Notes under the pieces: generated by a model
The model's database searches: none
Told to the model about the DNA's origin: nothing
Seen by the model: the letters and a program-made list of their open reading frames with translations, nothing else
From: a virus
Lineage: Duplodnaviria > Heunggongvirae > Uroviricota > Caudoviricetes
DNA length: 64,000 bases
Reading direction: 5' to 3' (one strand)
Virus record (IMG/VR): IMGVR_UViG_3300042009_000026
Span: 128,001 to 192,000 of that record
Program-made: the position numbers and the translations under genes
Part shown: piece after piece, positions 6,015-52,444 of the stretch
Layout: every line of letters starts with the position of its first letter
How positions within the stretch are numbered: the stretch's first letter is position 1

Positions 6015-6027
6015 TCTAGAGGTTTCA

Positions 6028-6263: not shown

Positions 6264-6288
6264 AAACCCCACCTTAAGGAGCTCTAAA

Positions 6289-6492: not shown

Positions 6493-6495
6493 GGA

Positions 6496-6741: not shown

Positions 6742-6775
6742 ATAGACTTCCCATATCTAAAGGAGGGTGGAAGCA

Positions 6776-7015: not shown

Positions 7016-7239
7016 TGCTTTTAAATATCGCTTCATTCGTATTGGTACTGATGTTTTGTCTAACTTTACCTGGTGGGGTTTGGTTAGTCTATCGCCGTGA
7101 ATATGAACCTGAATTCATAACACGGTATCGCAAGCCACTGCTGTGGATACTTTCATCTATAACAGTAATTGCGTTGGTATCAATGGGGACAATTTTCTAT
7201 GAGGTCTCCCAGATTCAGGAACGCTTACGCTTGATGTAA
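7015..7239 (+). CDS. Small two-helix membrane protein
   Basis: TAATG overlap with previous stop; two hydrophobic segments. Confidence 0.75.
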   Translation: MLLNIASFVLVLMFCLTLPGGVWLVYRREYEPEFITRYRKPLLWILSSITVIALVSMGTIFYEVSQIQERLRLM

Positions 7240-7288
7240 CGGCATAAAGCCTCCACCCGAAGGTGGAGGCAATATGTTATTTTTTTTA
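7240..7288. terminator. Bidirectional terminator-like hairpin between convergent genes
   Basis: CGGCATAAA-GCCTCCACC-CGAA-GGTGGAGGC-AATATG then T run. Confidence 0.8.
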
Positions 7289-7753: not shown

Positions 7754-7776
7754 TTGTGGGTCTTTGTTGCGATGAC

Positions 7777-9438
7777 CTACTGGTTGACTTTCTGGCCCGC
7801 CAAGGTAAAAAATGTCGATACGATATCAAGAGGGATCAAGTGATCGAAACGTTCATGGAACTTCTCGGCCATTGGAGATTCACATACTGAACAATTCCAC
7901 GAAGGAATAGCTACCATGCACAGAATAGTATCGTCAATGAACTGCAGTACGGCTGCTTCGAAAGCAGAGGCGTACTTCTTATCCGACATTACGTTGGACA
8001 GGTATTCATCAATGACTTCTTCGTTCTCAGTCAGAAGCTCTTCAGTAGAATTAGCATCTTCACGTTGATAGATAGCGTCTACCCAATGTGAGTACTGCCG
8101 TGCGCCCGTGATAGCCCCAAGGCGATCGATATAAGCGTTACGGTTAGCATCACCAGGGGCTTCGTTAAAAGCACTGTGAGAAGCATCTACTACGCCGTCA
8201 ATCCATCTGTTGCCAGCATCGCGTCGCTCAGCAATCGAAGGTACACGGAGACGAATGCCAATATCATCAAACCATTTGATAGGCTTTCGACCCAAAGTGG
8301 TGTCTTGTGCATATTGATCCAATTCCTCTGCTCGTAGTTGACGACCGAATCGAACGTGCAGCAAATCCTTCTGACGTTCTACCAGTTGTGTAATATCGAA
8401 CCAGGTAAGCGAGAACATGTCCAGCTTAGCTTCTTCTACATGGGTACACTTGGATGGATCAGCGATGCATGTATGGCGGTAGTTAAAGCCACCAGGATAC
8501 ATTGTCGATGCTAGACCGTGATGTAGGATAGGCTCATCCAATGCAGACAGACGATGCTCAATGTCACCAGGTGAAGTAGCTACCATGTTGGTATGGGTTA
8601 CACATTGCAAAGCTAGATCAGTCAGAGCGTTGTTATAAACAGCGATCCGATTAGAGAAGCCTTGGCCTTTAGTAGCACGACCCAAATTAACTGCAACGTT
8701 TTGCAGACGTTGAATCATGTTAGCTACTTCGGTATTCGTTGGTGTACGCAGACGAATCCAAATACCAGTGTGGGGCATAGGGAATTCGTGAGTAGCACCC
8801 ATACCCGATTTACGAGTCAGGTATGCCAACATATCGGACTTAGCCGGTTTGTCAGACAGTTTGATCTTCGGACGAGATGGACCGATCTTACGACCGTTGT
8901 GTTCAAAGAACTGTATCCACTCAGAACCTTCACGATGCGTAGCACGACGCGGTGTAGTGTTCATGTCGACGTGTTCGATGGCCGACTGGAGTGTCTCTAG
9001 CCATTCGAGGTCGCGTTGCTCTGTGGTGATCTCACCGCCTTCGATATCAGAGAACAAGCGGTGATGCACGCGCAAGATCTCTTCGAAAGTTTCAGGGTTT
9101 TCACGCATCAACGAAATGATCGCAGCTGTGGCTGGAATCTTTTCAGAATCGACTGGTCGGTCAATACGGAAATTTACTTTTGGTTGTTTAGGAGTAAAAG
9201 GTACCAAGACCTCTTCATCTCCACCGTCAACAGGTTCATCATCTTCTTGGGCGAGCTTATCCGCCAGCTGATGAACGTTCAGCGGTTTAGCTACCGGATC
9301 GGTAGCCTCCAGTGTAACATTACCTTGGTCATCAGTAGCCTCGTAAGTAGGCGTACTGATGTTTTGCTGGAAATGTACTGCCAGAGCAGGATCAATTTCT
9401 TCAGCGAATTCTTCATCATCTTGGATTTGGTGATTCAT
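7777..9438 (-). CDS. Conserved phiKZ-like core protein (gp77 position), possible baseplate-hub/tail assembly chaperone
   Basis: 553 aa; duplicated IRLR(T/V)P motif, Cys pairs (CIADPSKC, CSVC), FF near the C-terminus; function inferred. Confidence 0.75.
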   Translation of the reverse strand: MNHQIQDDEEFAEEIDPALAVHFQQNISTPTYEATDDQGNVTLEATDPVAKPLNVHQLADKLAQEDDEPVDGGDEEVLVPFTPKQPKVNFRIDRPVDSEKIPATAAIISLMRENPETFEEILRVHHRLFSDIEGGEITTEQRDLEWLETLQSAIEHVDMNTTPRRATHREGSEWIQFFEHNGRKIGPSRPKIKLSDKPAKSDMLAYLTRKSGMGATHEFPMPHTGIWIRLRTPTNTEVANMIQRLQNVAVNLGRATKGQGFSNRIAVYNNALTDLALQCVTHTNMVATSPGDIEHRLSALDEPILHHGLASTMYPGGFNYRHTCIADPSKCTHVEEAKLDMFSLTWFDITQLVERQKDLLHVRFGRQLRAEELDQYAQDTTLGRKPIKWFDDIGIRLRVPSIAERRDAGNRWIDGVVDASHSAFNEAPGDANRNAYIDRLGAITGARQYSHWVDAIYQREDANSTEELLTENEEVIDEYLSNVMSDKKYASAFEAAVLQFIDDTILCMVAIPSWNCSVCESPMAEKFHERFDHLIPLDIVSTFFTLAGQKVNQ

Positions 9439-9441
9439 GTA

Positions 9442-10101
9442 TTACTCCGAAGTCTCCTGGCCAGCTACGAATGCACGATACAGAATATCTGCATCAACAC
9501 CGCCAGCTTCCAGGATAGACATTTGTTTCATCAGCTCAGGGCCGACTTGGGTTTCCATTTGAGTTTGAATCTTGCTATACCCCATGGTCAGTTCAGCAAC
9601 CAGGGCCTGTTCATCTTCAGTTACCGCGCCTTCTTTGCCTTCGTGTCGTTTCGACAGAGCCAGCAGAACGGAGGACATGGTGGCCAGGTCTTCTTTCAGA
9701 GCATTAAAGTTCTCAGCGAATTCCTCGTAGTGTTCACCCAGTGTGGTGCGAACCAGTTCTTCTTCAGCAATAACAGGCAGAACAAACAGCTGTGTAGTCT
9801 GCAGTGCTTCACTGTTCAGCAGGAACAGTTGTTTCAGGATCGACCAGCCTTCAGCGGCAAGCAATTGTTGGGCTACAATAGATTGAGCCTCTACAATCAT
9901 CTTCTTGTTCTCTGGATTATCAATGGCAGCCGTATCGGCCAAGAAAGAACCGATATCTGGGGAGGAATAATACTTTTGGAAATCTGATGCTTGGGTATGT
10001 GTCATGGTATCGGCAATCTCTATGTTGATTGTATCACCTTCACGAGTAACACTTTTAACCTCAGCGATGGATTCTTGGGTGAATTGGGGATTAGGGCTCA
10101 T
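9442..10101 (-). CDS. Hypothetical alpha-helical protein
   Basis: 219-aa ORF with AGGA SD, co-oriented with downstream gene. Confidence 0.8.
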   Translation of the reverse strand: MSPNPQFTQESIAEVKSVTREGDTINIEIADTMTHTQASDFQKYYSSPDIGSFLADTAAIDNPENKKMIVEAQSIVAQQLLAAEGWSILKQLFLLNSEALQTTQLFVLPVIAEEELVRTTLGEHYEEFAENFNALKEDLATMSSVLLALSKRHEGKEGAVTEDEQALVAELTMGYSKIQTQMETQVGPELMKQMSILEAGGVDADILYRAFVAGQETSE

Positions 10102-10229
10102 CTATTTTTCCTTTGTGCAAATTTGCGGATTGTTAACATAGTATCTTACCGCCAGTACTTTAGTTCAGAGTAAAGATGGACTTGTAACGCAACAGTATGT
10201 GACTAAAATCAAAGGAAGAGGGCTTTTTA

Positions 10230-11090
10230 ATGCAATTCATTATAGACAGTGTATTAACTCCACTGATCACAGAAGAGCGAAAGGAGGTTATCCTGAACTG
10301 TGTAGCGTCGTTGGAGTCACTGGACTACCAGGCAGCACTGGATGAGCTCCACCAAGTAGTAGAGATGAAGGATGGCATGTGTGATAACGAGATGCTTATA
10401 TCTCGTATCGATGATGTGATCTGGAATGCCCATGAGACCATCTTTAAGCAACATGAGGTACAGGTGTCGACTGAGGCTTCACAAGAAGTCCGACAGTCCA
10501 TCGTAGAAGTGTTGGCTAACTTCGATAAGTATGTTGTCCCTGACCAACTATTAATGTTGTTCGAAGGGGGCTTCATGCCAGAAGAGATCTTGGCTCATAT
10601 GTGCCAATTGTTTACATCTGCAAAGATAGATGAAGTCTGGCCTGAGATCAAAGACGTATCCCCTAACCTAATGCGTACAATGCGGGATGAGATCGAACGA
10701 CAAGTTCGTTATCGTGGATTGGATGAGAATGACGTTACTCCACTTCGCCGTGTTAAGATGGTCAATGACTATATCCGCATTTGTGGAGCAGAAACTTTCT
10801 CTATGCTTTTGGATCTATCGCAAGCTGGTGTGCGCATCGGTACACGAGAGATCGGTACACTTATTCAACAATCACTAGAAGCTTTGGATCGTAAAGAATC
10901 CGAACACGCTGCTTTGGAAATCTTTGGTTTGGTGTTGATGTCGAATACCCCAGTTACAGAGATCGAAAAGAAAGTACGTGACCTCATCGGTGATTACACA
11001 GATAACAACATGGACAATTCCCGAATGCTTGAATCTATTAAGCCTTTGGTGAAACTCCTAGACGAGTACAAAGAAGATGCAGATTCGTGA
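10230..11090 (+). CDS. Conserved phiKZ-like protein (gp79 position)
   Basis: 286-aa ORF overlapping vRNAP subunit start. Confidence 0.8.
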   Translation: MQFIIDSVLTPLITEERKEVILNCVASLESLDYQAALDELHQVVEMKDGMCDNEMLISRIDDVIWNAHETIFKQHEVQVSTEASQEVRQSIVEVLANFDKYVVPDQLLMLFEGGFMPEEILAHMCQLFTSAKIDEVWPEIKDVSPNLMRTMRDEIERQVRYRGLDENDVTPLRRVKMVNDYIRICGAETFSMLLDLSQAGVRIGTREIGTLIQQSLEALDRKESEHAALEIFGLVLMSNTPVTEIEKKVRDLIGDYTDNNMDNSRMLESIKPLVKLLDEYKEDADS

Positions 11091-12423
11091 GTACTTCATG
11101 CGGGGCCTTTCATTAGGCCTGCATAAGAAACGACAATGGATGAATTGTTTGTTCTCAGTGGTGTACAACATCAACGAGTTCGAACATCATTACGACTATC
11201 GACTTTATAAGGACGAAAAAGGTTTATTCTTTTTCGTTCCTGGCAGCAAAGATCAGAAAGAATATATTGATGAATGGAAAGAAGACGTAGCGCTTCTACA
11301 TTTCCGAGATGAGTTTATTCTCCAACCTGGTGAGATCATTAACTATAAAGGTACTACCCCACTGCGTACGACTTATGGAAACGTATTCGCTAACCACCTG
11401 TGCCTGGTATTACCATTCGGAGATATCTTTGAGTTCGAAGCTGGGTTGTTTAACCTAAGCAAGCTCGAAGGAGAAATCCTGAAACGTATGATCGATGACC
11501 CTCCAGGTAATGAAGATCCATTGATCCGTGCCACTGATGGTAAGTTGTATGTTAGTCAGTACCTGATGTTTGCTGAACATGTACTTACACTGCCAGCTTA
11601 TTCAGATGGCTTGGTAACTGCTACGACTAAGAAGTCCTTGATGGCTTCACCAGATCGTAACCGTGTACGGGAGAAGTGGATCAAAGATAACCCAGATCGA
11701 TTGACTGACCCTGCTGCTGTGGCAGAACTGTCTAACGTACTGAAGAAACTCGATGACGAATATCTATCCGGTGATGAATCGGAAGAGTTCTATCGTTCTA
11801 AGAAGAAGCTCGAAGGTGCACGTAAGAAAGTGCATTACATGTTCGGTGCTGAATCTGCGTTCTCTGATGGTACGAAGGTAGAGCTGATTGCTAAGTCTTT
11901 GGAAGAAGGCATTGACATGGATAAATTGCCAGTCATGTTTAACTCCCTACGGGCTGGTTCATATAACCGTGGCAAACAGACGGCATTGGGTGGTGAATCG
12001 ACTAAGACGATCTATCGAATGGTTGGTACTGCTCGGATCGTTGAACACGATTGTAACACACATATCGGTGTTCCTACTACATTGTATCCATTCATTGCTA
12101 AAGACCTAGTTGGTTACGGCATGGTTCAGAATGGAAAGACCATCGTACTAACTCCTGAGCTGATCAATCAGTACATGGGCAAGACAGTAGACATCCGTGG
12201 ACCAATGTCCTGCAAGACTGGTCGTGATGTAGACAAAGGTATTCTGGGTAAAGGTAAGAACGTCTGCGCCGTATGTGCAGGTGCTTCCTTGGCAGAAAAC
12301 CCTAACGGTATTCCTGCAGCTGCTGCCGGGGTAGGTGGGCGATTCCTTTCCCTGTTCTTGGCTAAGATGCACGCAACTGTTCTACGTACCGTCCAATGGG
12401 ACATGCATACACGTATCACCTAA
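11077..12423 (+). CDS. rpoC: Virion RNA polymerase beta-prime subunit, C-terminal part (phiKZ gp80-like)
   Basis: SLEEG, RAGSYNRGKQTALGG bridge-helix-like segment, DC..CAVCAG zinc site, FLAKMH trigger loop. Confidence 0.87.
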   Translation: MQIREYFMRGLSLGLHKKRQWMNCLFSVVYNINEFEHHYDYRLYKDEKGLFFFVPGSKDQKEYIDEWKEDVALLHFRDEFILQPGEIINYKGTTPLRTTYGNVFANHLCLVLPFGDIFEFEAGLFNLSKLEGEILKRMIDDPPGNEDPLIRATDGKLYVSQYLMFAEHVLTLPAYSDGLVTATTKKSLMASPDRNRVREKWIKDNPDRLTDPAAVAELSNVLKKLDDEYLSGDESEEFYRSKKKLEGARKKVHYMFGAESAFSDGTKVELIAKSLEEGIDMDKLPVMFNSLRAGSYNRGKQTALGGESTKTIYRMVGTARIVEHDCNTHIGVPTTLYPFIAKDLVGYGMVQNGKTIVLTPELINQYMGKTVDIRGPMSCKTGRDVDKGILGKGKNVCAVCAGASLAENPNGIPAAAAGVGGRFLSLFLAKMHATVLRTVQWDMHTRIT

Positions 12424-42147: not shown

Positions 42148-43545
42148 ATGGCTGTTGATAATACGCTACTCATGCGAGAAGTTGAGGACATCCGGGATAA
42201 TGGCTTAGGTAATTCTGGATGGCGAATTGATTGCCAGATCATCATTAAAGAAACACAATGGATCAAACCACACAAAGTCGAATATGAAGCCTTGACTCGG
42301 GACTATGCTTCTAAGGAACAGTTCTCTGATCGGCGTATGATTCAGTTCATGATGCAACAGGGAGATTTCCAGTATGATGTTATTCCTAACCGGGATAACT
42401 TAATGGTGGAAGTTGTTTACGTTCCTTTGCAATTTAACTCATCCGCTCCTGATACCACACGTAAGTCTGAAGTGAAACGTTATCGCGCTGTATTGATGAC
42501 GCAATTCAACAACGCACTTACTAATAAGAATGCCCAGACTAGTTCACGAGAAGCATTGAACCAACTGGGCATGATGTCAGTAGCAATGCAGTTGATCGAT
42601 GAAGCAGCTTTCCGTATCAACATGATGTCCTATGGTAATGGTCTGCGTCAGTGTACCACCATGATGGCTGTCCAAGAAGTCTTGGCTTCTACGATGGGCG
42701 ATGTAGGTACGCAAGATATCAAACGGGTTAACGGGATTAACTTTCAGGAAGGTTTCAATACAGAGATCCGGACAGTAATGGATTTCCCTGATGGGATCAT
42801 GCTGAAAGATGTTCCCCACTATATCCATGAAGAAGAAGGCGGTGTGTACCCAACTGGATTTGGTAGATACCTACAAGACCAGCACTGGTACATCTATCCA
42901 CTGTACGATTCCACTCGGTATAAGAAGAACACTAAGGTTCTGAAACTTATCAACGTTCCTAACGATCGTTATCAAGGTGCTGAGCGAACGTACAAGATCG
43001 ATGAACAACACGTAACAGTGCTCGCTACTGGTGACGCTAGTTCATTGGACAGTGGTTTAGCCGATAACTTGAAGCAAGGTAATGGTCTCCGCTTTGGTGA
43101 CGTCACTAAGCTACTTGGGGACTTCGGTACGGCGAAAGATAACCGAACCCTCATCGATCGTGCTTCTAATGTCTTTGAGGTCTCTACGGGCCTCCTAGAG
43201 TCTGGTATGAATAACGTAAGATGGGCGTATGATCGGGCTACCTCTAACCCGTTCAAGCATTATTCAGAGATGGCTCGACGGCGTGGGATGTTCTTGAAGC
43301 TGCAGTGGTATCATGGCGATTCTGATTTGTTGTTCCCTGGAATGCCGGTTAAGTTTATGACTATTAACGATAACAATGTAGAAACATACAACGGTGTGTT
43401 ATTAGGTGTAGACGAACAGCGAGGACAAGGCGACTCTAACGTGGAAGTAACATCCCATGTTGGTATTGTTACTCTCGGTGTATTCATTAACCGTAAAGAG
43501 GGTGACCCGGTGATTATTGATCCGAACGCTCCTCGCACGAACTAA
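42148..43545 (+). CDS. Virion structural protein, probable baseplate hub (phiKZ gp101 position)
   Basis: 465 aa; C-terminal LLFPGMPVKF hub-like motif; synteny. Confidence 0.68.
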   Translation: MAVDNTLLMREVEDIRDNGLGNSGWRIDCQIIIKETQWIKPHKVEYEALTRDYASKEQFSDRRMIQFMMQQGDFQYDVIPNRDNLMVEVVYVPLQFNSSAPDTTRKSEVKRYRAVLMTQFNNALTNKNAQTSSREALNQLGMMSVAMQLIDEAAFRINMMSYGNGLRQCTTMMAVQEVLASTMGDVGTQDIKRVNGINFQEGFNTEIRTVMDFPDGIMLKDVPHYIHEEEGGVYPTGFGRYLQDQHWYIYPLYDSTRYKKNTKVLKLINVPNDRYQGAERTYKIDEQHVTVLATGDASSLDSGLADNLKQGNGLRFGDVTKLLGDFGTAKDNRTLIDRASNVFEVSTGLLESGMNNVRWAYDRATSNPFKHYSEMARRRGMFLKLQWYHGDSDLLFPGMPVKFMTINDNNVETYNGVLLGVDEQRGQGDSNVEVTSHVGIVTLGVFINRKEGDPVIIDPNAPRTN

Positions 43546-43590: not shown

Positions 43591-43962
43591 ATGCCGGGTA
43601 TCAATCACTTCGTAAGAATAGAACAAGTCTGGTCATACAACATGGTGGGTAGCATCAAAGAAATCATGAGTATAGACATGCATGTCATCAATGATCTCTT
43701 CACTAAGACCGCATCGTATCTGATGGCCAAGCATAATTTCTTCTTATATCAAGACAACCAACAATACAATGGCTTCCTCAATGAGCTACATGAACATATT
43801 GAGGGCTACTACAAAGTCACCCCGGATCATCTAATCTACTATTTCGATAACTTATTCCGGATCATCTCTCCTGCATTAGCACAGATCACTGAACGTATTG
43901 TTACCTGTACTACGATCACTACAGAGCTAGGGGAAATTGAAGGGTTCGTATTTGGGACGTAA
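43591..43962 (+). CDS. Hypothetical protein
   Basis: 123-aa ORF; start uncertain. Confidence 0.65.
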   Translation: MPGINHFVRIEQVWSYNMVGSIKEIMSIDMHVINDLFTKTASYLMAKHNFFLYQDNQQYNGFLNELHEHIEGYYKVTPDHLIYYFDNLFRIISPALAQITERIVTCTTITTELGEIEGFVFGT

Positions 43963-43968: not shown

Positions 43969-44007
43969 GATTTAAACCTTTTAAAAGCCTATATTACTAA
44001 CATGAAT
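43969..44007 (+). promoter_or_regulatory. Early virion-RNAP promoter
   Basis: GATTTAAA-N12-C-TATATTAC-TAACA-TGAAT. Confidence 0.85.
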
Positions 44008-44031
44008 CTAGTCAATTAAAAGGATTAATTT

Positions 44032-44352
44032 ATGGACTTAGTATCGAAGGTAATGTTAGGCTTAGTTAGTAGTGTTGTAGCAGTTAGCGCTGCCATGGCA
44101 ATACACGTTCACATCCGCTCCAAGGAAGCTATGAAGGTGCTGGATGACATGGAGGCTGAACTTAAAGTAGTTCACCATCAATTTAACGAAGCTGACATTT
44201 CCAAACAACAAGCAGAACGCGCTATCGATGCGATCATTGATCGTTATCAAGTTCGTTATCTGATCTATATGCTGGCCGATAAAACTGAAGTAATTACGTT
44301 CTTCGAAGACCATCGTAAAGGCAACAAGAAACTGTTGGGGTATCCAGCATGA
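44032..44352 (+). CDS. Small N-terminally membrane-anchored protein
   Basis: AAGGA SD; hydrophobic residues 4-27 then helical soluble part. Confidence 0.8.
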   Translation: MDLVSKVMLGLVSSVVAVSAAMAIHVHIRSKEAMKVLDDMEAELKVVHHQFNEADISKQQAERAIDAIIDRYQVRYLIYMLADKTEVITFFEDHRKGNKKLLGYPA

Positions 44353-44516
44353 GTAATGTAATTGATGATTCCGTCAATGAGCGGTACCGCAGAATGGCTG
44401 AAGGCAAAGAACCTAAGGCCGTATCTCAAGATGTACTCTGGATCACTCCCCGCAGACTAGGCATGCTCTTCGGAGTTTGCTTGGTTATGACCGTTATGTT
44501 TAACGGGATTCACTAA
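44349..44516 (+). CDS. 55-aa C-terminally anchored membrane microprotein (not in ORF track)
   Basis: ATGA overlap; MSNVIDDSVNERYRRMAEGKEPKAVSQDVLWITPRRLGMLFGVCLVMTVMFNGIH. Confidence 0.65.
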   Translation: MSNVIDDSVNERYRRMAEGKEPKAVSQDVLWITPRRLGMLFGVCLVMTVMFNGIH

Positions 44517-44549
44517 CCGTTGTAAACTTTCCGTGTATGGAGCTTTGCC

Positions 44550-44873
44550 ATGTCAATGAATAAGTTTAGTATTGGTTTGATCATCGGTGTAGTTGTCGCC
44601 ATTGGCGCCACTGCTTTCAAAGTGAATTCCGTCTGCAAGAAGCATGACGAGGCTTTGGAACTGTTCGACAAAGAATTCACTGCCTTGTTAGGTCTGGTGA
44701 AATCTGGGTTGTTGACTGTTGAAGAAGGGCTGAAAGAATACGAGGTTGTACACGCTCGTGCAGCAGAACGTTGCCTGGCGCATACACTCGATCGCAAAGC
44801 CACAGAAATCTGGCTGGCTGATATGCACAAGGTCAATATTGGCTTGATCAAGATGACCCTTGCGGATAGCTAA
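44550..44873 (+). CDS. Small N-terminally membrane-anchored protein
   Basis: GGAG SD; FSIGLIIGVVVAIGATAF. Confidence 0.8.
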   Translation: MSMNKFSIGLIIGVVVAIGATAFKVNSVCKKHDEALELFDKEFTALLGLVKSGLLTVEEGLKEYEVVHARAAERCLAHTLDRKATEIWLADMHKVNIGLIKMTLADS

Positions 44874-44874
44874 G

Positions 44875-44903
44875 ATAACGGGTGGCTTCGGTCGCCCGTT
44901 ATG
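44875..44903 (+). terminator. Family hairpin
   Basis: ATAACGGGTGGC-TTCG-GTCGCCCGTTAT-G. Confidence 0.75.
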
Positions 44904-44915
44904 CTGCCAGATGTT

Positions 44916-44960
44916 GATTTAAAAGATTTAAAAGGCTATATTACAACTGTGAATGTACCC
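44916..44960 (+). promoter_or_regulatory. Early virion-RNAP promoter, direct-repeat copy 1
   Basis: GATTTAAA-N12-CTATATTACAACTGTGAATGTACCC. Confidence 0.85.
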
Positions 44961-44983
44961 CAGTAATCTCAGGAGTTCACATC

Positions 44984-45160
44984 ATGCTTAAGCTAGTCCA
45001 TATTGGTCTCTTGGCTGCTTTCACCGCATCTAACAGTGCTGTGATTGTTGAAGAAGTTAAAAAGCCTGGTCCTCTCCGCAGTAATGCGAAGTTGGCTGTA
45101 GGTGTTTCCTGTGTTGCTTTGGGCGTCAGCTCAATCCTGCTTTCGTTCCGACATACTTAA
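44984..45160 (+). CDS. 58-aa two-helix membrane microprotein (not in ORF track)
   Basis: AGGAG SD; MLKLVHIGLLAAFTASNSAVIVEEVKKPGPLRSNAKLAVGVSCVALGVSSILLSFRHT. Confidence 0.75.
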   Translation: MLKLVHIGLLAAFTASNSAVIVEEVKKPGPLRSNAKLAVGVSCVALGVSSILLSFRHT

Positions 45161-45181
45161 TTTAATCTAAGGAGTTACATC

Positions 45182-45361
45182 ATGATCGGCAATATCTTCC
45201 GCGTTACCCTGCTCGGCGCTGTTGGCTATGCTCACGGTCGTTCCGTAGTACAAGAATTTAAGAAACCTGCTGCAGAGCGTAACAACCTTGGCGTTGTTGT
45301 AAGTACCGCGGTTGCCGGTCTGTGTGCTTGTGCCATCGGTGCGATCATCTCCCCTAAATAA
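45182..45361 (+). CDS. 59-aa two-helix membrane microprotein, paralog of 44984 (not in ORF track)
   Basis: AAGGAG SD; MIGNIFRVTLLGAVGYAHGRSVVQEFKKPAAERNNLGVVVSTAVAGLCACAIGAIISPK. Confidence 0.78.
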   Translation: MIGNIFRVTLLGAVGYAHGRSVVQEFKKPAAERNNLGVVVSTAVAGLCACAIGAIISPK

Positions 45362-45486
45362 CCATCTGCCTGGTATATGGCATGAGCTTATAGTCTGCGG
45401 ATTATGAGCTCACCACAAACTTAAACTAAGTCGATTTTCTTTTTAGGTGTTAACTGGCACCTGCGCTATTTATAAGGAGCACAACA

Positions 45487-45657
45487 ATGAAAGTTAAAGG
45501 CATCTTCTCCAACGATCCGGCCAAAGCAATGTCGCAGAAAGAGATCGATCTGCAGACATCCCGGTTGAAATTTGTAAGTGCTGTCGGCGGTCTTATCGCC
45601 ATGACTTTGGGCATTGCGCTGGCTACTATAAAACTCTCCAATGAATTGAAAAAGTAA
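45487..45657 (+). CDS. 56-aa single-helix membrane microprotein (not in ORF track)
   Basis: AAGGAG SD; MKVKGIFSNDPAKAMSQKEIDLQTSRLKFVSAVGGLIAMTLGIALATIKLSNELKK. Confidence 0.75.
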   Translation: MKVKGIFSNDPAKAMSQKEIDLQTSRLKFVSAVGGLIAMTLGIALATIKLSNELKK

Positions 45658-45723
45658 TCAGCACAATCTAATGAGAGGGATCGCGTTGGTCCCTCCATTA
45701 ACCAATTCATGGGGGCCGGTTCA

Positions 45724-46200
45724 ATGGCTGAATTCATTATCGGTAAAGATATCTTCAAGGAACCTGGAGATCTTTACATTGTCACAGTAAACACGATCGG
45801 TGTTATGGGTGCGGGTGTTGCTAAAGCATTCGCCGAACGCCATCACGATCTGTTTCTCAAATACAAACATGACTGTAAGATGAAGATCATCACAATCGGT
45901 CATCCAGCTCTATATGAAGGTACTGACGGTAAACGCTATCTAATGTTCCCTACTAAAGAGAACTGGCGAAATCCTTCAACCTACGATTACGTTGGATTAG
46001 GTCTGCAATGGCTCGTCGATAACATCGGTGAAGACGAAGATCAGATCAATCCTAAATGGACCATCATTGTACCACCCCTCGGTTGTGGTAATGGTGGCCT
46101 AGACTTCGATATCGTCTCTGAGATGATAGAAGAAGCTTCTGGTAAGATTCCAAACAAGATGATTGTTGTATATCCACCTTGGATGAGCGGTAAACAGTGA
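45724..46200 (+). CDS. DarG/TARG1-like macrodomain ADP-ribosylglycohydrolase
   Basis: TVNTIGVMGAGVA, MFPTKENWRNPS, PPLGCGNGGLDF are hallmark DarG macrodomain motifs. Confidence 0.88.
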   Translation: MAEFIIGKDIFKEPGDLYIVTVNTIGVMGAGVAKAFAERHHDLFLKYKHDCKMKIITIGHPALYEGTDGKRYLMFPTKENWRNPSTYDYVGLGLQWLVDNIGEDEDQINPKWTIIVPPLGCGNGGLDFDIVSEMIEEASGKIPNKMIVVYPPWMSGKQ

Positions 46201-46205
46201 TACGC

Positions 46206-46240
46206 CATAAGCGCTACCCCGAAGGGTAGCCTTTATGCCG
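46206..46240 (+). terminator. Family hairpin
   Basis: CATAAGC-GCTACCC-CGAA-GGGTAGC-CTTTATGCCG. Confidence 0.8.
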
Positions 46241-46243
46241 TGA

Positions 46244-46288
46244 CATTGAAACAGAATAAACACCTATATTACAACTGTGAATGTACCC
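46244..46288 (+). promoter_or_regulatory. Early virion-RNAP promoter, direct-repeat copy 2
   Basis: CATTGAAA-N12-CTATATTACAACTGTGAATGTACCC; 25 nt identical to 44936-44960. Confidence 0.85.
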
Positions 46289-46308
46289 ACCAAATTAAGG
46301 ATAATACG

Positions 46309-46587
46309 ATGAATAGGTTCTTAAGTTTTGTTGGTCTTGTTGCCGCTGCTAATGCGTGCTACTACAACCAATCACGTTTGGATCGTAATGATGCCATGCG
46401 TAAGATTCCTGCAGAAATCGAAGATGCTCTTAAGCACTTCGTTTTTAAACCGACTTTCGATGAATTGAAGAGTCAGTTAACTTTCTTCGAAGCTTGGGGT
46501 AGCTACAATATCTATTACGCCAAGCATCGCGATGAGTTCGTTGCAGAACTCAATAAACAAATCAAAATGGCATCCACCGGTAATTAA
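46309..46587 (+). CDS. Small protein with hydrophobic N-terminus
   Basis: AAGGA SD before ATG 46309; MNRFLSFVGLVAAANACYY. Confidence 0.75.
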   Translation: MNRFLSFVGLVAAANACYYNQSRLDRNDAMRKIPAEIEDALKHFVFKPTFDELKSQLTFFEAWGSYNIYYAKHRDEFVAELNKQIKMASTGN

Positions 46588-46596
46588 GGAAGTTTC

Positions 46597-46776
46597 ATGA
46601 AAAATGTAATTGGCGCAGTTGTAGCGGTTGCAGCAGTTGGTGGCTTGGGTTATATTGCCTACCGTCGCTACATGACCAAAATACTTGATGCTGGTACAGT
46701 TCAAGTTATCAAAGGAATGAAAGAGGTTAATGCCAGAAAAGAACAAGTGATTCACTTGGGCCACGCTAAGGAGTAA
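46597..46776 (+). CDS. 59-aa N-anchored membrane microprotein (not in ORF track)
   Basis: AAGGA SD; MKNVIGAVVAVAAVGGLGYIAYRRYMTKILDAGTVQVIKGMKEVNARKEQVIHLGHAKE. Confidence 0.78.
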   Translation: MKNVIGAVVAVAAVGGLGYIAYRRYMTKILDAGTVQVIKGMKEVNARKEQVIHLGHAKE

Positions 46777-46780
46777 CAAC

Positions 46781-47218
46781 ATGCAGAAAGAGTCATTGGC
46801 TTTCCAAATTGCTTTCTACACTGGTCTGACCAAACGCATTCAAGCGGCTGGTTTTGCTCTGGGTATGGGGACACCTTTGGTAACCAAAACGTACAAAGGC
46901 TATCTGATTAAACAGATCCAATGTACGATGGAAATGCATGAAGCGTCTTACGACGTGACTTACACCGACAAAGATGGCAAGGAAGGCCATTGTGTCGAAG
47001 TGCTTCAATTTGAAAATGACTCGGTGAAGGAATTCATCGCTCAGCGTTTCAATGTAATGGTCTTCACTCGGGAGGTTACTGGTGTAGCCGTGATCGGTTA
47101 TGACGGTATCTCTGTCGATGGTGAATCTGTAAGTCTGGGTGCTACTTCAGGTGAATACCTGATGAATCCTGGAGCACGCTTGTTCTTCGATTCACGTGTA
47201 GTCGGGAATAAGGTATAA
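46781..47218 (+). CDS. Hypothetical soluble protein
   Basis: AAGGAG SD; 145 aa. Confidence 0.8.
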   Translation: MQKESLAFQIAFYTGLTKRIQAAGFALGMGTPLVTKTYKGYLIKQIQCTMEMHEASYDVTYTDKDGKEGHCVEVLQFENDSVKEFIAQRFNVMVFTREVTGVAVIGYDGISVDGESVSLGATSGEYLMNPGARLFFDSRVVGNKV

Positions 47219-47222
47219 CTTG

Positions 47223-47286
47223 TGGGGACTTCGGTCCCCATAATTTATTCATAAGCCAGTGCATCGCTGCTTTATGAATAAATTAT
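47223..47286. repeat. UUCG hairpin followed by a 15-bp perfect AT-rich inverted repeat
   Basis: TGGGGAC-TTCG-GTCCCCA; ATAATTTATTCATAA (47240-47254) / TTATGAATAAATTAT (47272-47286). Confidence 0.8.
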
Positions 47287-47309
47287 CAACTACATTAAGA
47301 GTAAACATC

Positions 47310-47480
47310 ATGAAAAACCATATCTATTTCGTAATTGGTCTGATCGTTGGTTCTATTGGTCTGGCTAATCTGTCTGCTCTGGCAGATGATCGTAAAGAAG
47401 TTGTAGCCGTAGTAAAGAAAGAAATCATTCTTGGCCATCGTATCGGCCCGAATGGTCAAGAAATGCTGGTAGTTAAATAA
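47310..47480 (+). CDS. 56-aa N-anchored or exported microprotein
   Basis: MKNHIYFVIGLIVGSIGLANLSALA-DD, signal-peptide-like. Confidence 0.72.
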   Translation: MKNHIYFVIGLIVGSIGLANLSALADDRKEVVAVVKKEIILGHRIGPNGQEMLVVK

Positions 47481-47505
47481 CCCCACCTATACAGGAATAC
47501 CAACT

Positions 47506-47709
47506 ATGAATCTTCTGACACGCGTTGCTATCACCGCTACCGCTGGTATCGCTTCTGGCCTGGGCATCACCCTGCTGAAAGAAGGTATCAAACACGTCCA
47601 TTCCGAGGATCACGATGTCCGTCGTGATGCATCTATCTTCGTAGGCGCTGGCGCGTTCTGCCTGGCAGCTGGAGTAACTGCCGTTCTCTCGACCGTCTTC
47701 GAGGAATGA
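47506..47709 (+). CDS. 67-aa two-helix membrane microprotein
   Basis: AGGA SD; two Gly/Ala-rich hydrophobic segments around a charged loop. Confidence 0.78.
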   Translation: MNLLTRVAITATAGIASGLGITLLKEGIKHVHSEDHDVRRDASIFVGAGAFCLAAGVTAVLSTVFEE

Positions 47710-47990
47710 CCAGCTGGCAAATCGCAATGACACTGCTGCCCTACGTGGGCAGCATTTTGTCGTCATTCGGTGAAGCTTCAGTAAAAGCTTTCCAAACCCG
47801 CAATATTGCACAAGGCCACGAGAGGAATGCTTTCTATACCTCCATCCTAGTTGCAGGTAGTTACGTAGCTAACGTTAATTTCGTAATCATGGGTGGCTGG
47901 TGGGTATTACTTACCGCAGTTATCGGTGGTTCATTCGGCACTGTATTCGCAATGCGCTTACACAAATTTCTATTTAAGGATAAGTCATGA
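47706..47990 (+). CDS. Small multi-pass membrane protein (DUF5698-like architecture, tentative)
   Basis: About three hydrophobic segments, FQTRNI..G..A..TS, GGSFGT. Confidence 0.75.
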   Translation: MTSWQIAMTLLPYVGSILSSFGEASVKAFQTRNIAQGHERNAFYTSILVAGSYVANVNFVIMGGWWVLLTAVIGGSFGTVFAMRLHKFLFKDKS

Positions 47991-48376
47991 AACTCATTCA
48001 ACAAGCACTGGTTGTTCTGTCCAAAATCAAATCCCTTCTGGTTATCCAAGATATCAAGCAACAATTCGTGGATAAAGAAGTTGGTGCGATCATGGATCAT
48101 GTCCGTGCAAGTTATCCAGATTTCATGGTTCATGATGAATCACCCAAGATCATTCACACCATGGGTTCTGTCGAACTGGACTATGTACACATGGCTCAGT
48201 ATAAGAAGGCATTCAAAGGCCTGGGTATCGCTCTACTGAATGCTACGCCCGGAATGCAAGAACAGGGTTTCAATATGTTCCTGCGTTTTGGTAATAACAT
48301 GCTACCAGTAAAAGTCTACAAACAAGTGCACATCGGACGTGGCCAACGCTGCCGCATGATGAAGCCTGCGATTTAA
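47987..48376 (+). CDS. Hypothetical protein
   Basis: AAGGA SD, ATGA overlap. Confidence 0.75.
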   Translation: MKLIQQALVVLSKIKSLLVIQDIKQQFVDKEVGAIMDHVRASYPDFMVHDESPKIIHTMGSVELDYVHMAQYKKAFKGLGIALLNATPGMQEQGFNMFLRFGNNMLPVKVYKQVHIGRGQRCRMMKPAI

Positions 48377-48405
48377 AAGAATCCAACACCTATATTACTG
48401 TTGCG
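48370..48405 (+). promoter_or_regulatory. Early virion-RNAP promoter
   Basis: GATTTAAA-N12-C-TATATTAC at 48391-48398. Confidence 0.82.
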
Positions 48406-48435
48406 ATAACCGTTATCAATTTAAGGAGTTTCATC

Positions 48436-48552
48436 ATGAGTTCTTTCGCTAAAATTATTATTACCGCAGTCGTCTGTGGTGTAGTACAACAAGTGGTCTG
48501 CTCGATCTCCGACGTATACCGGCCTAATCCGAAGGTCGAAGAGCCGAAGTAA
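48436..48552 (+). CDS. 38-aa hydrophobic microprotein (not in ORF track)
   Basis: AAGGAG SD directly after promoter; MSSFAKIIITAVVCGVVQQVVCSISDVYRPNPKVEEPK. Confidence 0.72.
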   Translation: MSSFAKIIITAVVCGVVQQVVCSISDVYRPNPKVEEPK

Positions 48553-48590
48553 TCCCCCCGAATTCTAAATTAAGTATTGGAGCATCTATC

Positions 48591-48725
48591 ATGGGCAAAG
48601 CATTTAATGAAATGGGCACTCTCGGTAAACTGTGTATCATCGTCATCGTTGCTTACACGGTCAAAGACTGTGTGCAACATGTCACTGAAACCATCCGCAT
48701 GAACAAAGCAGCTTCTTCGAAGTAA
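48591..48725 (+). CDS. 44-aa hydrophobic microprotein (not in ORF track)
   Basis: GGAG SD; MGKAFNEMGTLGKLCIIVIVAYTVKDCVQHVTETIRMNKAASSK. Confidence 0.7.
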   Translation: MGKAFNEMGTLGKLCIIVIVAYTVKDCVQHVTETIRMNKAASSK

Positions 48726-48775
48726 TCGGCGAATCCGCCTGCTGTACAACTCAACCCCACGTAAGGAGCATCACC

Positions 48776-48943
48776 ATGCTTAGCAACCTTCTGAAACTTG
48801 CTGGTATCGCTGCCATTGGTTACATTGGCTTCCAAGTTGGTCGTCACTGGGACGAAATCTCTGCGGAGATGGATGAACTGGACCCACCTAATCCTAACGA
48901 TCCAACCGTGATCGTTGAAACCCCTGTGCCACCTGCGGAGTAA
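48776..48943 (+). CDS. 55-aa N-anchored microprotein with acidic Pro-rich tail (not in ORF track)
   Basis: AAGGAG SD; MLSNLLKLAGIAAIGYIGFQVGRHWDEISAEMDELDPPNPNDPTVIVETPVPPAE. Confidence 0.75.
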   Translation: MLSNLLKLAGIAAIGYIGFQVGRHWDEISAEMDELDPPNPNDPTVIVETPVPPAE

Positions 48944-48948
48944 ACGAC

Positions 48949-49233
48949 ATGTCTATGCTCGGTTCATTGATCAAGATCGGTGCAGTCGGCGCCATGGTAG
49001 TAATAGGGCAACGACTCTGGGACCGCTATCAGGTTGAAGACCTGTATGTGGAACTGGATGCGATCGTTGATCGTGTCCGGGCTGACAAAAATCGGCGTGG
49101 TACTGTTCGTGCACATACGCTGGTTGAAGCGAAAGAACTCATTGCTGCATTTGAGCGCAAGGTTACTTACGTCGATTCGTTAAATGAGCTTCGTCGCAAT
49201 GTCGAAATCTACATCGAGTCGATTCCTGACTGA
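48949..49233 (+). CDS. Small N-anchored membrane protein
   Basis: GGAG SD; N-terminus resembles 48776 (ML..L.K...A...G..R.WD). Confidence 0.8.
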   Translation: MSMLGSLIKIGAVGAMVVIGQRLWDRYQVEDLYVELDAIVDRVRADKNRRGTVRAHTLVEAKELIAAFERKVTYVDSLNELRRNVEIYIESIPD

Positions 49234-49238
49234 TGTCC

Positions 49239-49280
49239 TGGGGTGGGGGGCTACGGCTCCCCATCTCAATTTTCTTTTTT
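49239..49280 (+). terminator. Canonical intrinsic terminator
   Basis: G-rich stem, TACG loop, followed by TTTTCTTTTTT. Confidence 0.75.
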
Positions 49281-49313
49281 GTAGAGCACTAATTTTATTT
49301 AAGGATAAACACC

Positions 49314-49649
49314 ATGACAAACTTTCAACTGCAGATTGCTGGGAAGATTGTATTGGGGATAGTTGTTACTGCTGGTTTTATCGCCATTGCTCGTACAGCT
49401 ACTCCAATGCGTGACATCAACGACATTATCGAAGAAACGAAATATGAATGGATAGATGCCAAGCTGCGGCAGTCCATCAATGATAAATACAGTGCTGGTA
49501 AAATAACTCGTTTAGAATGGTTAGAAGCCATGCATAATGGTCCAGCTAAATTGCTGTGGCTACGGCTTTCTACCACCTATCCAAATCACACGCACTACAT
49601 CGCTAAACGTATTCGTCAAGAATATCCACACGCAACTAAATGGGTTTAA
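49314..49649 (+). CDS. Small N-anchored membrane protein
   Basis: AAGGA SD; IVLGIVVTAGFIAIA. Confidence 0.8.
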   Translation: MTNFQLQIAGKIVLGIVVTAGFIAIARTATPMRDINDIIEETKYEWIDAKLRQSINDKYSAGKITRLEWLEAMHNGPAKLLWLRLSTTYPNHTHYIAKRIRQEYPHATKWV

Positions 49650-49651
49650 TA

Positions 49652-49840
49652 ATGCGCAAGATTGCTTTGACTGTTGCTATGTGCTGCGCCATGGTGATTG
49701 GCGTGGCACAAGCCATGTGGGAAATCGAACAACCAGTAGGTGGCGTTTCAGATCAGTTCTGTAAGCGCCCTGAACATCCGTGCACAGCTTTTAACTACGA
49801 GGTGACCCATGAGTCAGTTGCATCGGTTTCCAAGCCCTGA
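49652..49840 (+). CDS. Small exported protein with signal peptide
   Basis: MRKIALTVAMCCAMVIGVAQA-M (AxA cleavage motif). Confidence 0.65.
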   Translation: MRKIALTVAMCCAMVIGVAQAMWEIEQPVGGVSDQFCKRPEHPCTAFNYEVTHESVASVSKP

Positions 49841-49988
49841 AGAAGTTGTAATGCGTTACCCGCATCTCCGTAAGAACTTGGGTCATAATCGCCCCATCGA
49901 AGACCTGGTGATACCGCATGAACTGGCGGTAAAACTATTTAGCTTACATGTCACTGCTGCATTGTTAAAAACAAGGAACAAGAAATGA
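49809..49988 (+). CDS. 59-aa hypothetical protein (not in ORF track)
   Basis: GAGGTG SD; ends in ATGA overlap with next gene. Confidence 0.62.
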   Translation: MSQLHRFPSPEEVVMRYPHLRKNLGHNRPIEDLVIPHELAVKLFSLHVTAALLKTRNKK

Positions 49989-51238: not shown

Positions 51239-51445
51239 ATGCCGTTAGGTATGGCTGGTGGCACAATTGCTGCTATGGTTATAATGCTCATGCTATCTAT
51301 CGTGATTGCTCTGATAGAGATCGGCAAGAATGGGCCAAGCTGTCACAACAAATTAATGTGGTGCTTTGGTACCATGTCGGTCGAAGTGCTGGTTATTTTT
51401 GTAACCATGACCAATTACATTAATCATGGTGTCGGTGCATCATGA
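51239..51445 (+). CDS. Small two-helix membrane protein
   Basis: AAGGA SD; two hydrophobic segments. Confidence 0.72.
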   Translation: MPLGMAGGTIAAMVIMLMLSIVIALIEIGKNGPSCHNKLMWCFGTMSVEVLVIFVTMTNYINHGVGAS

Positions 51446-51705
51446 TCCAATGGCTAACACTAATAGTGGCACTAGCGGCTCTTGTAGTCGCAGTGATCGC
51501 ACTTTATCGTGCAACCCACACCGAACGTAAGGTTCAGGTTATCCCACCTCCTTGCCAACACAAGTGGGGTGTGCGCGAAATGTCAAATCGAAGTGATCGA
51601 TGGGATCGTTGCACTGGTTATGTGTACATCATGCAATGTGCAGACTGTGGTGATCTCAAAGCCACGCATATTAACGTTAACGGTCGTGATTGGACGGAAC
51701 ACTAA
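51442..51705 (+). CDS. Membrane-anchored zinc-ribbon protein
   Basis: N-terminal TM, CQHKW...CADCG. Confidence 0.75.
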   Translation: MIQWLTLIVALAALVVAVIALYRATHTERKVQVIPPPCQHKWGVREMSNRSDRWDRCTGYVYIMQCADCGDLKATHINVNGRDWTEH

Positions 51706-52199
51706 TGAAAGATGAAACGCTGTACCAAGCATTCCAAGCTTTGTTCTTTGCCTGCTGGCATTCGAAAGATAACAAACGCGAATATACCGAAAAGCTTCGT
51801 GCTTTAGCTGAACTAGGTGAAAAGGTTTGGCCAGATAAGTTCGAGATGGTTCGGAAGAATCATTCGTGGTCTACTTGGCAGCAACGTTACAATGACCCTG
51901 AGGCTATTCTGCCTCAACGTATTTGTGATGATGCGCTGCTGCAACGCATTACCATTGAGATGTTACTGAACTGTACCTTTCATGCACGAGGTGATTGGTA
52001 CATCAACATTGAATCTGAACGTGCGATCGATGATAGCCTGAACGGCATGTCATTGACTTACTACAATCGAGTAAGTGAGGAGACCCTGTATATCGGACGT
52101 TTCTTTAGTAGTGTCACTACCACAATGATGATCGAAGTTGGTCATCACATCCGTTTCATCGAGGGCGCTTCTAATCCAATGACGGCAGACACTGAATGA
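51705..52199 (+). CDS. Hypothetical protein
   Basis: TAATG coupling at 51705. Confidence 0.75.
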   Translation: MKDETLYQAFQALFFACWHSKDNKREYTEKLRALAELGEKVWPDKFEMVRKNHSWSTWQQRYNDPEAILPQRICDDALLQRITIEMLLNCTFHARGDWYINIESERAIDDSLNGMSLTYYNRVSEETLYIGRFFSSVTTTMMIEVGHHIRFIEGASNPMTADTE

Positions 52200-52444
52200 T
52201 CACGATTACACTACAAGGCATTTACGTAATCTCTTCATTGCTCAGCTTGGCTATTGCATTGGTTGTAGGTATTCATCTGCATCAACTGGATAATTGTCTT
52301 CGTGAACTTAAGGTTCACAATGATCCCAGGGTTAAATACTTCACAGCTGCTGTTAGTTTCTTCGGTACGGCTATGTGGGTTATCTTGGGTGCAATCTTCG
52401 CTTGTCTGATGGTGTACGAAGACTTCCGTAGACTCGGATTATAA
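52196..52444 (+). CDS. Small two-helix membrane protein
   Basis: ATGA overlap; two hydrophobic segments. Confidence 0.75.
   Translation: MITITLQGIYVISSLLSLAIALVVGIHLHQLDNCLRELKVHNDPRVKYFTAAVSFFGTAMWVILGAIFACLMVYEDFRRLGL

Follow-up and report, generated by a model that had tools for sequence, protein, structure and literature searches.

Which proteins does a nucleus-forming jumbo phage place in or on membranes during the first minutes of infection? A dense run of small genes at positions 44032-49840 of a 64,000-nucleotide stretch of viral DNA raises this question. The stretch, here called the window, covers bases 128001-192000 in a virus record that is 317,367 bp long and has direct terminal repeats; coordinates are window positions. 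All 20 genes of the block lie on the plus strand, and 17 of them are predicted to encode envelope-targeted microproteins, which fall into at least 13 unrelated families. Such genes are of a known kind, the early small membrane proteins of virulent phages. No paper in the literature that we searched treats this block, or the early membrane proteins of the Chimalliviridae, as a unit, and what the small uncharacterised genes of jumbo phages do is among the open questions listed by a 2026 review. The reading that we favour, with moderate confidence, is that the block is an accessory, rapidly evolving, envelope-acting island that is largely but not wholly expressed early.

The genome that carries the block is a Tepukevirus-like (phiKZ-like, Chimalliviridae) Pseudomonas jumbo phage, whose closest named relatives are the Pseudomonas syringae jumbo phages Psa21 (Tepukevirus), D6, and RVTF4. 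These three served as distant relatives in our comparisons, and three metagenome contigs (L017-L019) served as closer ones. Just upstream of the block, gene 42148-43545 is a homologue of phiKZ gp101 (it shares 90% identity with the Psa21 counterpart and 45% with that of phiKZ), and gene 43591-43962, immediately 5' of the block, is a homologue of gp102. Because these two genes and a gp104 homologue are identified at and around the block, it can be assigned to the slot occupied in phiKZ by gp102.1-gp108 and in PhiPA3 by gp107-gp113. These syntenic equivalents resemble the block in their position after gp101/gp102, in a TATATTAC motif after gp102, in a macro gene at mid-block (gp104 in phiKZ), and in their runs of small transmembrane (TM) proteins. 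The block is about twice as large, however, with 17 membrane genes, and most of its families have no detectable counterpart there. The slot is membrane-rich in phiKZ, PhiPA3, and Noxifer and partially so in SPN3US, and in Goslar no comparable block flanks the macro gene. Its phiKZ version encodes strong TM segments in gp102.1, gp103, gp106.1, and gp108 and weaker ones in gp106 and gp107, and that of PhiPA3 has five TM proteins in a row. At the DNA level, megablast finds the relatives too diverged for comparison except in the macro gene and one 295-bp stretch that matches D6.

We scored a TM segment where the Kyte-Doolittle mean over 19 residues was at least 1.6, and a weaker hydrophobic stretch where only a 15-residue window passed. 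Fourteen of the 20 genes have a strong segment and three (46309, 48591, and 48776) have the weaker kind, which together give the 17 hydrophobic small proteins that an earlier, sequence-only reading of this DNA had counted. The genes without a hydrophobic segment are the macro gene 45709, 46781 (145 residues), and 47987 (129 residues). Against 68 TM genes among the 410 in a codon-usage-based call of the whole genome, the 14 strong cases are a marked enrichment (hypergeometric P = 6e-8). No other 20-gene run of the genome scores as high, and in 5000 label permutations 14 TM genes were never reached. The hydrophobic segments had also been described as often rich in glycine and alanine, which is true of some but not of others (the two residues make up a fraction of 0.12-0.47).

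The eight open reading frames (ORFs) of fewer than 60 codons (44349, 44984, 45182, 45487, 46597, 48436, 48591, and 48776) are genuine genes under purifying selection. They had been put forward as such from the letters alone, with conservation and the ratio of nonsynonymous to synonymous substitution rates (dN/dS) named as the evidence to consult, and both now speak for them. Independent annotators call the small ORFs in Psa21, D6, RVTF4, and the three metagenome contigs, and nearly all have orthologues, at 26-76% amino acid identity in the named phages and 50-94% in the contigs. Pooled dN/dS for the small genes against the contigs is 0.18-0.20. Gene by gene, the ratio exceeds 0.4 in one tiny comparison only, that of 46597 with L017, where dS is low and the ratio is 0.94; against L018 and L019 the same gene gives 0.24-0.26. 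Relative to the three named phages, the proportion of synonymous differences is saturated and that of nonsynonymous differences is far lower. All eight have Shine-Dalgarno sites, the leaders quoted for these genes are present as written, and 44349 does start in an ATGA overlap, as do 47706 and 47987. Minus-strand ORFs of 101-112 residues also cover the block, but we rejected them because the codon-usage gene caller and conservation in the relatives favour the plus strand.

Constraint on these genes is combined with speed. A flanking virion gene has a dN/dS of 0.04 and the macro gene one of about 0.06, so the small genes of the block are constrained yet evolve several times faster. Identity to Psa21 is 85-90% for the flanking virion and macro genes, in contrast to 26-76% for the block proteins. 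Separately, tblastn reveals unannotated homologues of 49652 in Psa21 (61%) and D6 (46%) and of 44349 in D6 (70%), so annotation misses microprotein genes in the published relatives too.

Gene content is also fluid. Both L018 and L019 lack 46309, 47706, 48436, and 48591. GIY-YIG homing-endonuclease genes are inserted in the blocks of the closer relatives (L017:5587-6291, L018:2459-3145, and L019:2670-3356) and none is present in the window. Their insertion point differs between L017 and L018/L019, and with two such positions the slot stands out as a hotspot of mobile insertion. Scans of the 20 proteins against Pfam, PHROGs, and NCBIfam return only Macro/DarG (45709), phrog_15989 (47310), and phrog_7045 (47706); matches to MitoNEET_N, CATRA-C, and MscL were rejected as sub-threshold noise. 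Profile comparison supports the paralogy of 48436 and 48591 (hhalign probability 96%) and weakly that of 44032 and 44550 (41%), and BLAST links 44984 to 45182 through a common RVTF4 hit. All other families show no mutual similarity by hhalign, and tblastn of the block proteins against the whole genome (E < 0.01) gives no match more than 400 nucleotides from the gene's own position. Diversification by duplication, which had been suggested for the array, thus describes 48436/48591, 44984/45182, and perhaps 44032/44550, but not the rest of the at least 13 unrelated families.

These features invite the explanation that the block has no collective function: unrelated ORFan or moron genes would simply accumulate in a hypervariable dumping ground, and would lean toward membrane proteins because no other new proteins are as easily fixed, or do as little harm, as short hydrophobic helices. 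The absence of mutual similarity among at least 13 families is as expected from it, and so are the frequent turnover and endonuclease insertions and a dN three to eight times that of neighbouring genes. The families are also extremely narrow: 48949, the best-conserved, has eight small-protein relatives (nine hits with E <= 0.001) among 1.84 billion representatives, and profile and word-index searches with 48949, 49314, and 47310 match only jumbo-phage contigs of the same clade. Every family is nonetheless under purifying selection, and polar residues within TM helices, loop motifs, and soluble domains are conserved. Furthermore, membrane genes also crowd the slot in phiKZ, PhiPA3, and Noxifer although sequence similarity has disappeared, which points to selection for the membrane property itself. 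Early units outside the block are not biased toward membrane proteins, and the idea that early genes are in general membrane genes was ruled out by the lack of an association between TM genes and early promoters there. We consider a dumping ground without collective function quite improbable.

If the membrane property is selected, when are these proteins made? Four TATATTAC sites lie in the block, at 43990, 44937, 46265, and 48391. The motif occurs genome-wide 28 times in the forward direction and once in reverse (26:0 when a C precedes it), with two occurrences of its reversed control. An extended motif, tttaaaagccTATATTACtaacatGaat, is found at 26 of the 28 forward sites, and the four in the block are among them. 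The form common to these 26 sites, ...tttaaa(a/g)..(c)TATATTAC(t/a)n(t/c)nGtGaat, agrees with the published early consensus of 201phi2-1 (TTTRARR_BTATATTACDWHDGTG) and with the phiKZ core, which supports the proposed identity of TATATTAC as a phiKZ-type early promoter. In phiKZ, early promoters are recognised by the virion polymerase that is injected; they have a high AT content and conserved positions near -10, -20, and -30. The four cores in the block are intergenic and lie 35-38 nucleotides upstream of the starts of 44032, 44984, 46309, and 48436, and published 5' untranslated regions of phiKZ are typically 31-40 nucleotides long. The motif also follows the gp102 homologue in phiKZ (106875) and Psa21 (103272), is present at the equivalent slot in phiKZ, Psa21, and PhiPA3, and lies upstream of phiKZ gp105 at 108063. 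Five TATATTAC copies occur in the Psa21 block.

Promoters and hairpins, all on the plus strand, divide the block into units. The first early-type core, P1 (43990-43997), directly follows the gp102 homologue and heads 44032, 44349, and 44550; this unit ends at a terminator hairpin (44877-44900) with a GC-rich 10-bp stem inside a longer helix and a UUCG loop (-20 kcal/mol for the fold 44870-44915). P2 (44937-44944), assigned by its motif match, heads 44984 and 45182. Two hairpins at 45383-45463, between 45182 and 45487, bound the P2 unit and may separate its early pair from 45487 and the macro gene, which end at a terminator hairpin 3' of the latter (46213-46230). P3 (46265-46272), whose Psa21 equivalent lies 3' of the macro gene at 105849, heads 46309, 46597, and 46781, and the hairpins that close this unit (47220-47283) are a terminator at 47222-47241 followed at once by a long hairpin at 47243-47283. 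P4 (48391-48398; 108048 in Psa21) heads 48436, 48591, 48776, and 48949 and is closed by a strong intrinsic terminator (49239-49268) with a 13-bp stem and then a T run.

Two units have no TATATTAC. One consists of 47310, 47506, 47706, and 47987; no TATATTAC lies between the hairpins at 47220-47283 and 47310, and P4 follows 47987 directly with no terminator found between them. The other consists of 49314 and 49652. Membership in an early unit is therefore clear for 12 of the 20 genes, possible for two more, and absent for six. The claim that four promoters drive the block stands for these 12-14 genes, but 47310-48376 and 49314-49840 lie behind strong terminators and fall outside it. A search for k-mers enriched as middle or late promoters upstream of 47310 and 49314 recovered the early motif and terminator tails only. 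The second hairpin before 47310 is a long, near-perfect inverted repeat (AATTTATTCATAAG...CTTTATGAATAAATT) that ends about 27 nucleotides before the start codon, and its role might be that of a second terminator, a regulatory RNA element, or a site where a protein binds. Across the genome, terminator hairpins with a CTTCGG-type loop and a CTTTATGCCGT tail are intergenic and strongly enriched upstream of genes. They often stand directly 5' of early promoters and resemble the terminator-TTAT motif of phiKZ known from ONT-cappable-seq (Oxford Nanopore Technologies).

Published phiKZ data bear on timing at the syntenic slot. In the control series of an RNA time course (PMC12571901, Source Data Fig. 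3b), gp106 yields one of the most abundant phage transcripts of the first time point, which then declines (9810, 6854, 1905, 1142, and 1080). The gp105, gp106.1, and gp107.1 RNAs decay like it, and that of gp103 is flat (PMC12571901). The gp104 RNA rises from 1019 to 11395 and is flat under ChmA knock-down (PMC12571901). This gene encodes AdfM, a DarG2-like de-ADP-ribosylase (anti-DarT2) that is imported into the phage nucleus and expressed late (PMC13309987). The early expression that had been proposed for the whole block is indirectly supported by the gp105, gp106, gp106.1, and gp107.1 RNAs, which are the earliest, but gp104 itself is late and nucleus-dependent in phiKZ.

The AdfM orthologue of the window is the macro gene itself (45709-46200), which encodes a macrodomain protein that is not a membrane protein. 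It matches Pfam Macro and NCBIfam DarG (E 4e-39) and is 59% identical to phiKZ gp104. Its ...TVN... and ...FPTK... motifs align with the catalytic N23 and K78 of phiKZ AdfM, and its true start is probably the ATG at 45724 (MAEF...).

From these data we infer the following course of events for the island in this phage. It sits in a fixed slot 3' of the gp101/gp102 virion-gene homologues, built around the anti-DarT gene adfM. Because their units are headed by the early promoter of the virion RNA polymerase, transcription of the 12-14 genes in four promoter-terminator units would begin on the injected genome within minutes. Inserted in the inner membrane or exported to the periplasm, the products would then probably each bind an envelope component of their own, from the host or the phage. 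Their collective role may be to exclude superinfecting or competing phages, to blunt membrane-associated defences, or to re-tune host membrane proteins. We favour such host-specific accessory functions over core machinery. The island adjoins AdfM, a proven anti-defence gene, and the neighbouring phiKZ genes gp102.1, gp103, and gp105 can be deleted (PMC13309987) and tolerate transposons. Predicted signal peptides with AxA sites in 47310 and 49652, and a lipobox (lipoprotein signal) in one gene of the orthologous RVTF4 block, point to envelope targeting beyond the inner membrane.

Phage T4 offers a functional parallel for exclusion. Its Imm and Sp are early, small superinfection-exclusion proteins that lie in the inner membrane or face the periplasm and are dispensable in the laboratory. 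The block proteins are likewise small, mostly encoded behind early promoters, and predicted to act at the envelope, but they have no sequence similarity to Imm or Sp and form an array of seventeen rather than a pair. No homologue of superinfection-exclusion proteins of the T4 Imm/Sp or HK97 gp15 type appeared in the Pfam, PHROGs, and NCBIfam scans of the block proteins.

Several observations weigh against an accessory, early, envelope-acting island. The same scans found no block protein with detectable homology to a characterised exclusion, anti-defence, or regulator protein. TM genes are not enriched near early promoters in the genome beyond the block. Nor is the island uniformly early: six of its genes have no early promoter, and phiKZ expresses its AdfM gene late. 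Finally, phiKZ transposon insertion sequencing (TnSeq) tables (read_count and ins_count) suggest that not every gene of such a slot can be lost. Insertions are many in gp102.1, gp103, gp104, gp105, gp106.1, and gp107, and most neighbours of gp106 and gp108 have hundreds to thousands of reads. In the same tables gp106 (NC_004629.1 108610-108948; L011:3611-3949) has 0 reads, or 5 in a less filtered table, like ChmA, and gp108 (110100-110456; L011:5101-5457) has 10-12. Both encode small, N-anchored proteins. Polarity is unlikely to lie behind the gp106 result, because insertions in gp106.1 and gp107, upstream of gp108, are tolerated. The near absence of insertions from gp106 and gp108 therefore indicates that some members of such blocks are not merely accessory. 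We found no comment on this scarcity in the text of the papers searched. Profile comparison of the window families with gp106, gp107, gp108, gp241, and PhiPA3 gp109-113 by hhalign shows no significant link beyond gp102.1 and gp111.

The architectures of the proteins suggest what they might do, with topology and signal peptides inferred from sequence. The largest class combines an N-terminal anchor with a helical domain of 70-90 residues and has basic residues after the helix, a charge distribution that predicts an N-out/C-in topology. It begins with 44032-44352, a single-pass protein of 106 residues with a helical C-terminal domain and K/R residues on the C-terminal side of the TM segment; this gene has orthologues in D6 and the metagenome relatives and is a possible paralogue of 44550-44873 (107 residues, single-pass; dN/dS 0.18-0.23). 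The third member, 46309-46587, was listed as an ORF from 46240; its corrected start at ATG 46309 gives 92 residues with a weak hydrophobic anchor at the N terminus. In the single-pass 48949-49233 protein (94 residues; dN/dS 0.08-0.09), alignment of the family shows a variable anchor and a near-invariant soluble domain, with an invariant GTV and an EIYIESIPD end. The AlphaFold2 model of this family is confident and has three helices (pLDDT 85), but it finds nothing better than E = 2 in the PDB by Foldseek and so gives no clue to function. The last, 49314-49649, is single-pass with 111 residues and no early promoter upstream (dN/dS 0.06-0.10), and an ESM Atlas search with it gave no usable match.

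This class recalls phiKZ gp241, the trigger of the Juk defence, which is sensed by JukA and is the one phage protein described as anchored in the vesicle of early phage infection (EPI). The gp241 protein has 109 residues, with an N-terminal Gly-rich hydrophobic segment and a helical domain, and its gene has its own TATATTAC 44 nucleotides upstream. An anchor, a helical domain, and an early promoter are likewise combined in 44032, 44550, 46309, and 48949, and 49314 differs in having no early promoter. (JADA, phiKZ gp124, was also considered as a possible relative, but it is a large soluble protein and not relevant.) The early N-anchored proteins could thus serve the vesicle, with their C-terminal domains on its cytoplasmic face and functions in RNA or nucleotide exchange, recruitment of ribosomes or ChmA, transfer of the genome to the nucleus, or protection against Juk-type effectors. 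Besides the architecture shared with gp241, the predicted N-out/C-in topology and the behaviour of gp106 in the syntenic slot, abundant at the first time point and free of transposon insertions like ChmA, are consistent with this role; gp106 thus looks immediate-early and also important for fitness.

Other evidence makes a vesicle function unlikely in our view. No window family exceeds 8% by hhalign with gp241, nor is there homology to gp106, and tblastn of gp241 against this genome is negative. The gene content varies even between close relatives, phiKZ gp102.1, gp103, and gp105 are dispensable, and gp241 itself tolerates transposon insertions in the phiKZ TnSeq data and is thus non-essential. 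Goslar, in which the EPI vesicle has been studied, has no comparable block beside its macro gene. Sec-exported peptides, moreover, would end in the periplasm and not in a sealed vesicle, and newly made proteins would need a route into a vesicle that has already pinched off. The proposal of the sequence-only reading, that the whole block is a dedicated membrane toolkit of the first minutes, for example at the early vesicle, goes beyond the evidence as regards the vesicle, given the variable content, the deletable phiKZ genes, the two predicted Sec-type signal peptides, and the lack of a Goslar block. A more specific version, that 44032, 44550, 46309, 48949, and 49314 together with gp106/gp108 form a protein coat on the vesicle's cytoplasmic face, is rather less credible still. 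Such a coat might mediate RNA exit, substrate entry, or hand-off of the genome to the nascent nucleus. If it exists, then the Chimalliviridae keep components of their first organelle in a hypervariable slot, where they evolve under pressure from Juk-like sensors.

The shorter proteins fall into other classes. Two are tail-anchored. The 55-residue product of 44349-44516 is a homologue of phiKZ gp102.1 (hhalign 88%, E 3e-6) that is 69% identical to its Psa21 orthologue and has a dN/dS of 0.05-0.07 against the closer relatives, and that of 45487-45657 (56 residues) is 61% identical to Psa21 with a dN/dS of about 0.2. Three are predicted two-TM hairpins with a basic loop: the tandem genes 44984-45160 and 45182-45361 (58 and 59 residues), which have a conserved K-K-P loop motif, both match RVTF4_5083, and show a dN/dS of 0.11-0.32, and 47506-47709 (67 residues; dN/dS 0.06-0.09). 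Very short N-anchored peptides make up a further class, which comprises 46597-46776 (59 residues), the tandem paralogues 48436-48552 and 48591-48725 (38 and 44 residues; hhalign E 2e-9), and 48776-48943 (55 residues), whose weak N-terminal anchor is followed by an acidic, proline-rich tail. The paralogous pair has conserved polar residues within its TM helix (dN/dS 0.08-0.36). The in-helix Q/E and S residues of the 48436 family resemble those of MgrB, AcrZ, and MgtS, host-encoded single-helix regulators of 30-60 residues whose polar helix residues bind a larger membrane protein, but there is no homology to them.

The last two classes belong largely to the first unit that has no early promoter. 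Gene 47706-47990 encodes a 94-residue protein with two or three TM segments that matches the holin family phrog_7045 (E 9e-11). It resembles that family in size, TM segments, and a basic C-terminal tail (...RLHKFLFKDKS), but its neighbours are other microproteins and no endolysin or spanin gene adjoins it. Homologues occur in 51 phage records, and the one in Stappia phage SI01 overlaps with a gene for a muramidase. Many phiKZ-type genomes have one, often unannotated (MW057919.1 10598-10834 and NC_042060.1 17695-17931, for example), and those annotations probably overlook a conserved gene for a small membrane protein.

Two precursors have Sec-type signal peptides. That of 47310-47480 (56 residues) is predicted to end in ...SALA before DD and to leave a mature peptide of about 31 residues with a conserved C terminus (HRIGPNGQEMLVVK). 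No other microprotein of the block is conserved as widely: it matches phrog_15989 (E 2.7e-10), is linked to PhiPA3 gp111 (hhalign 99.5%), and has a homologue in Noxifer. The second, 49652-49840 (62 residues, or 66 from 49640), has a putative signal ending in ...VAQA before MW. Its mature peptide has a conserved Cys pair, of which RVTF4_9514 keeps FC-x6-C, and its dN/dS is 0.13-0.25. A 59-residue ORF at 49809-49988 overlaps the end of this gene by 32 nucleotides. No gene is called there in L017, and the ORF is 53% identical to the middle of a 127-residue Psa21 gene (L009:10428-10811); it is perhaps a remnant left by truncation, or a gene that has become shorter.

Could part of the block, mostly 47310-47987, instead be a lysis-timing module, in which a holin-family protein, small membrane partners, and a periplasmic peptide serve as a secondary holin, an antiholin, or lysis-inhibition sensors? 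Both the holin-family match and the SI01 arrangement fit this idea, as does the position of the four genes in a sub-operon 3' of a terminator with no early promoter. The T4 antiholin RI, like a processed 47310 peptide would be, is a small periplasmic protein. A lysis-inhibition system not yet identified has also been suggested in the phiKZ lysis paper. This genome, however, has a complete phiKZ-type lysis cassette at 219.7-221.6 kb, with homologues of gp141.1, gp142, gp143, and gp144, and gp142 is the holin of the experimentally defined phiKZ cassette (PMC12894885). The 47706 protein is therefore not the main holin. L018 and L019 lack 47706, and the idea would cover at most four of the 20 genes; we think it very unlikely.

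Two genes of the block stand outside these classes. Gene 46781-47218 encodes a soluble protein of 145 residues (dN/dS 0.11-0.13). The 129-residue product of 47987-48376 has an N-terminal segment that is weakly hydrophobic here, and its relatives in Psa21, RVTF4, and D6 have a strong N-terminal TM segment.

The block thus provides a ranked list of candidates, 17 conserved and selected envelope proteins that are mostly driven by early promoters and sorted into topology classes. It is also tied to a phiKZ slot for which public data show immediate-early expression and the near absence of insertions in gp106 and gp108. If its products are exclusion or anti-defence factors, as the favoured accessory island implies, then the AdfM locus is extended into an anti-defence island. 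If some of them are vesicle proteins, then the organelle of early infection is opened to genetic study.

Small membrane proteins are also encoded elsewhere in the window. A separate run of four two-TM proteins (70, 67, 79, and 79 residues) lies at 6028-7015, has a TATATTAC at 6246 between its first and second genes, and is far more hydrophobic than the block proteins. Just downstream of the block, 51239-52444 encodes further small membrane proteins of 68, 79, and 82 residues. In the product of 51466 and its relatives in Psa21 and RVTF4, an N-terminal anchor is accompanied by a conserved motif rich in Cys (CQH.W ... C..CGD), which resembles a zinc ribbon. In RVTF4, two adjacent genes with this Cys motif (10484 and 10732) are followed by two more membrane genes.

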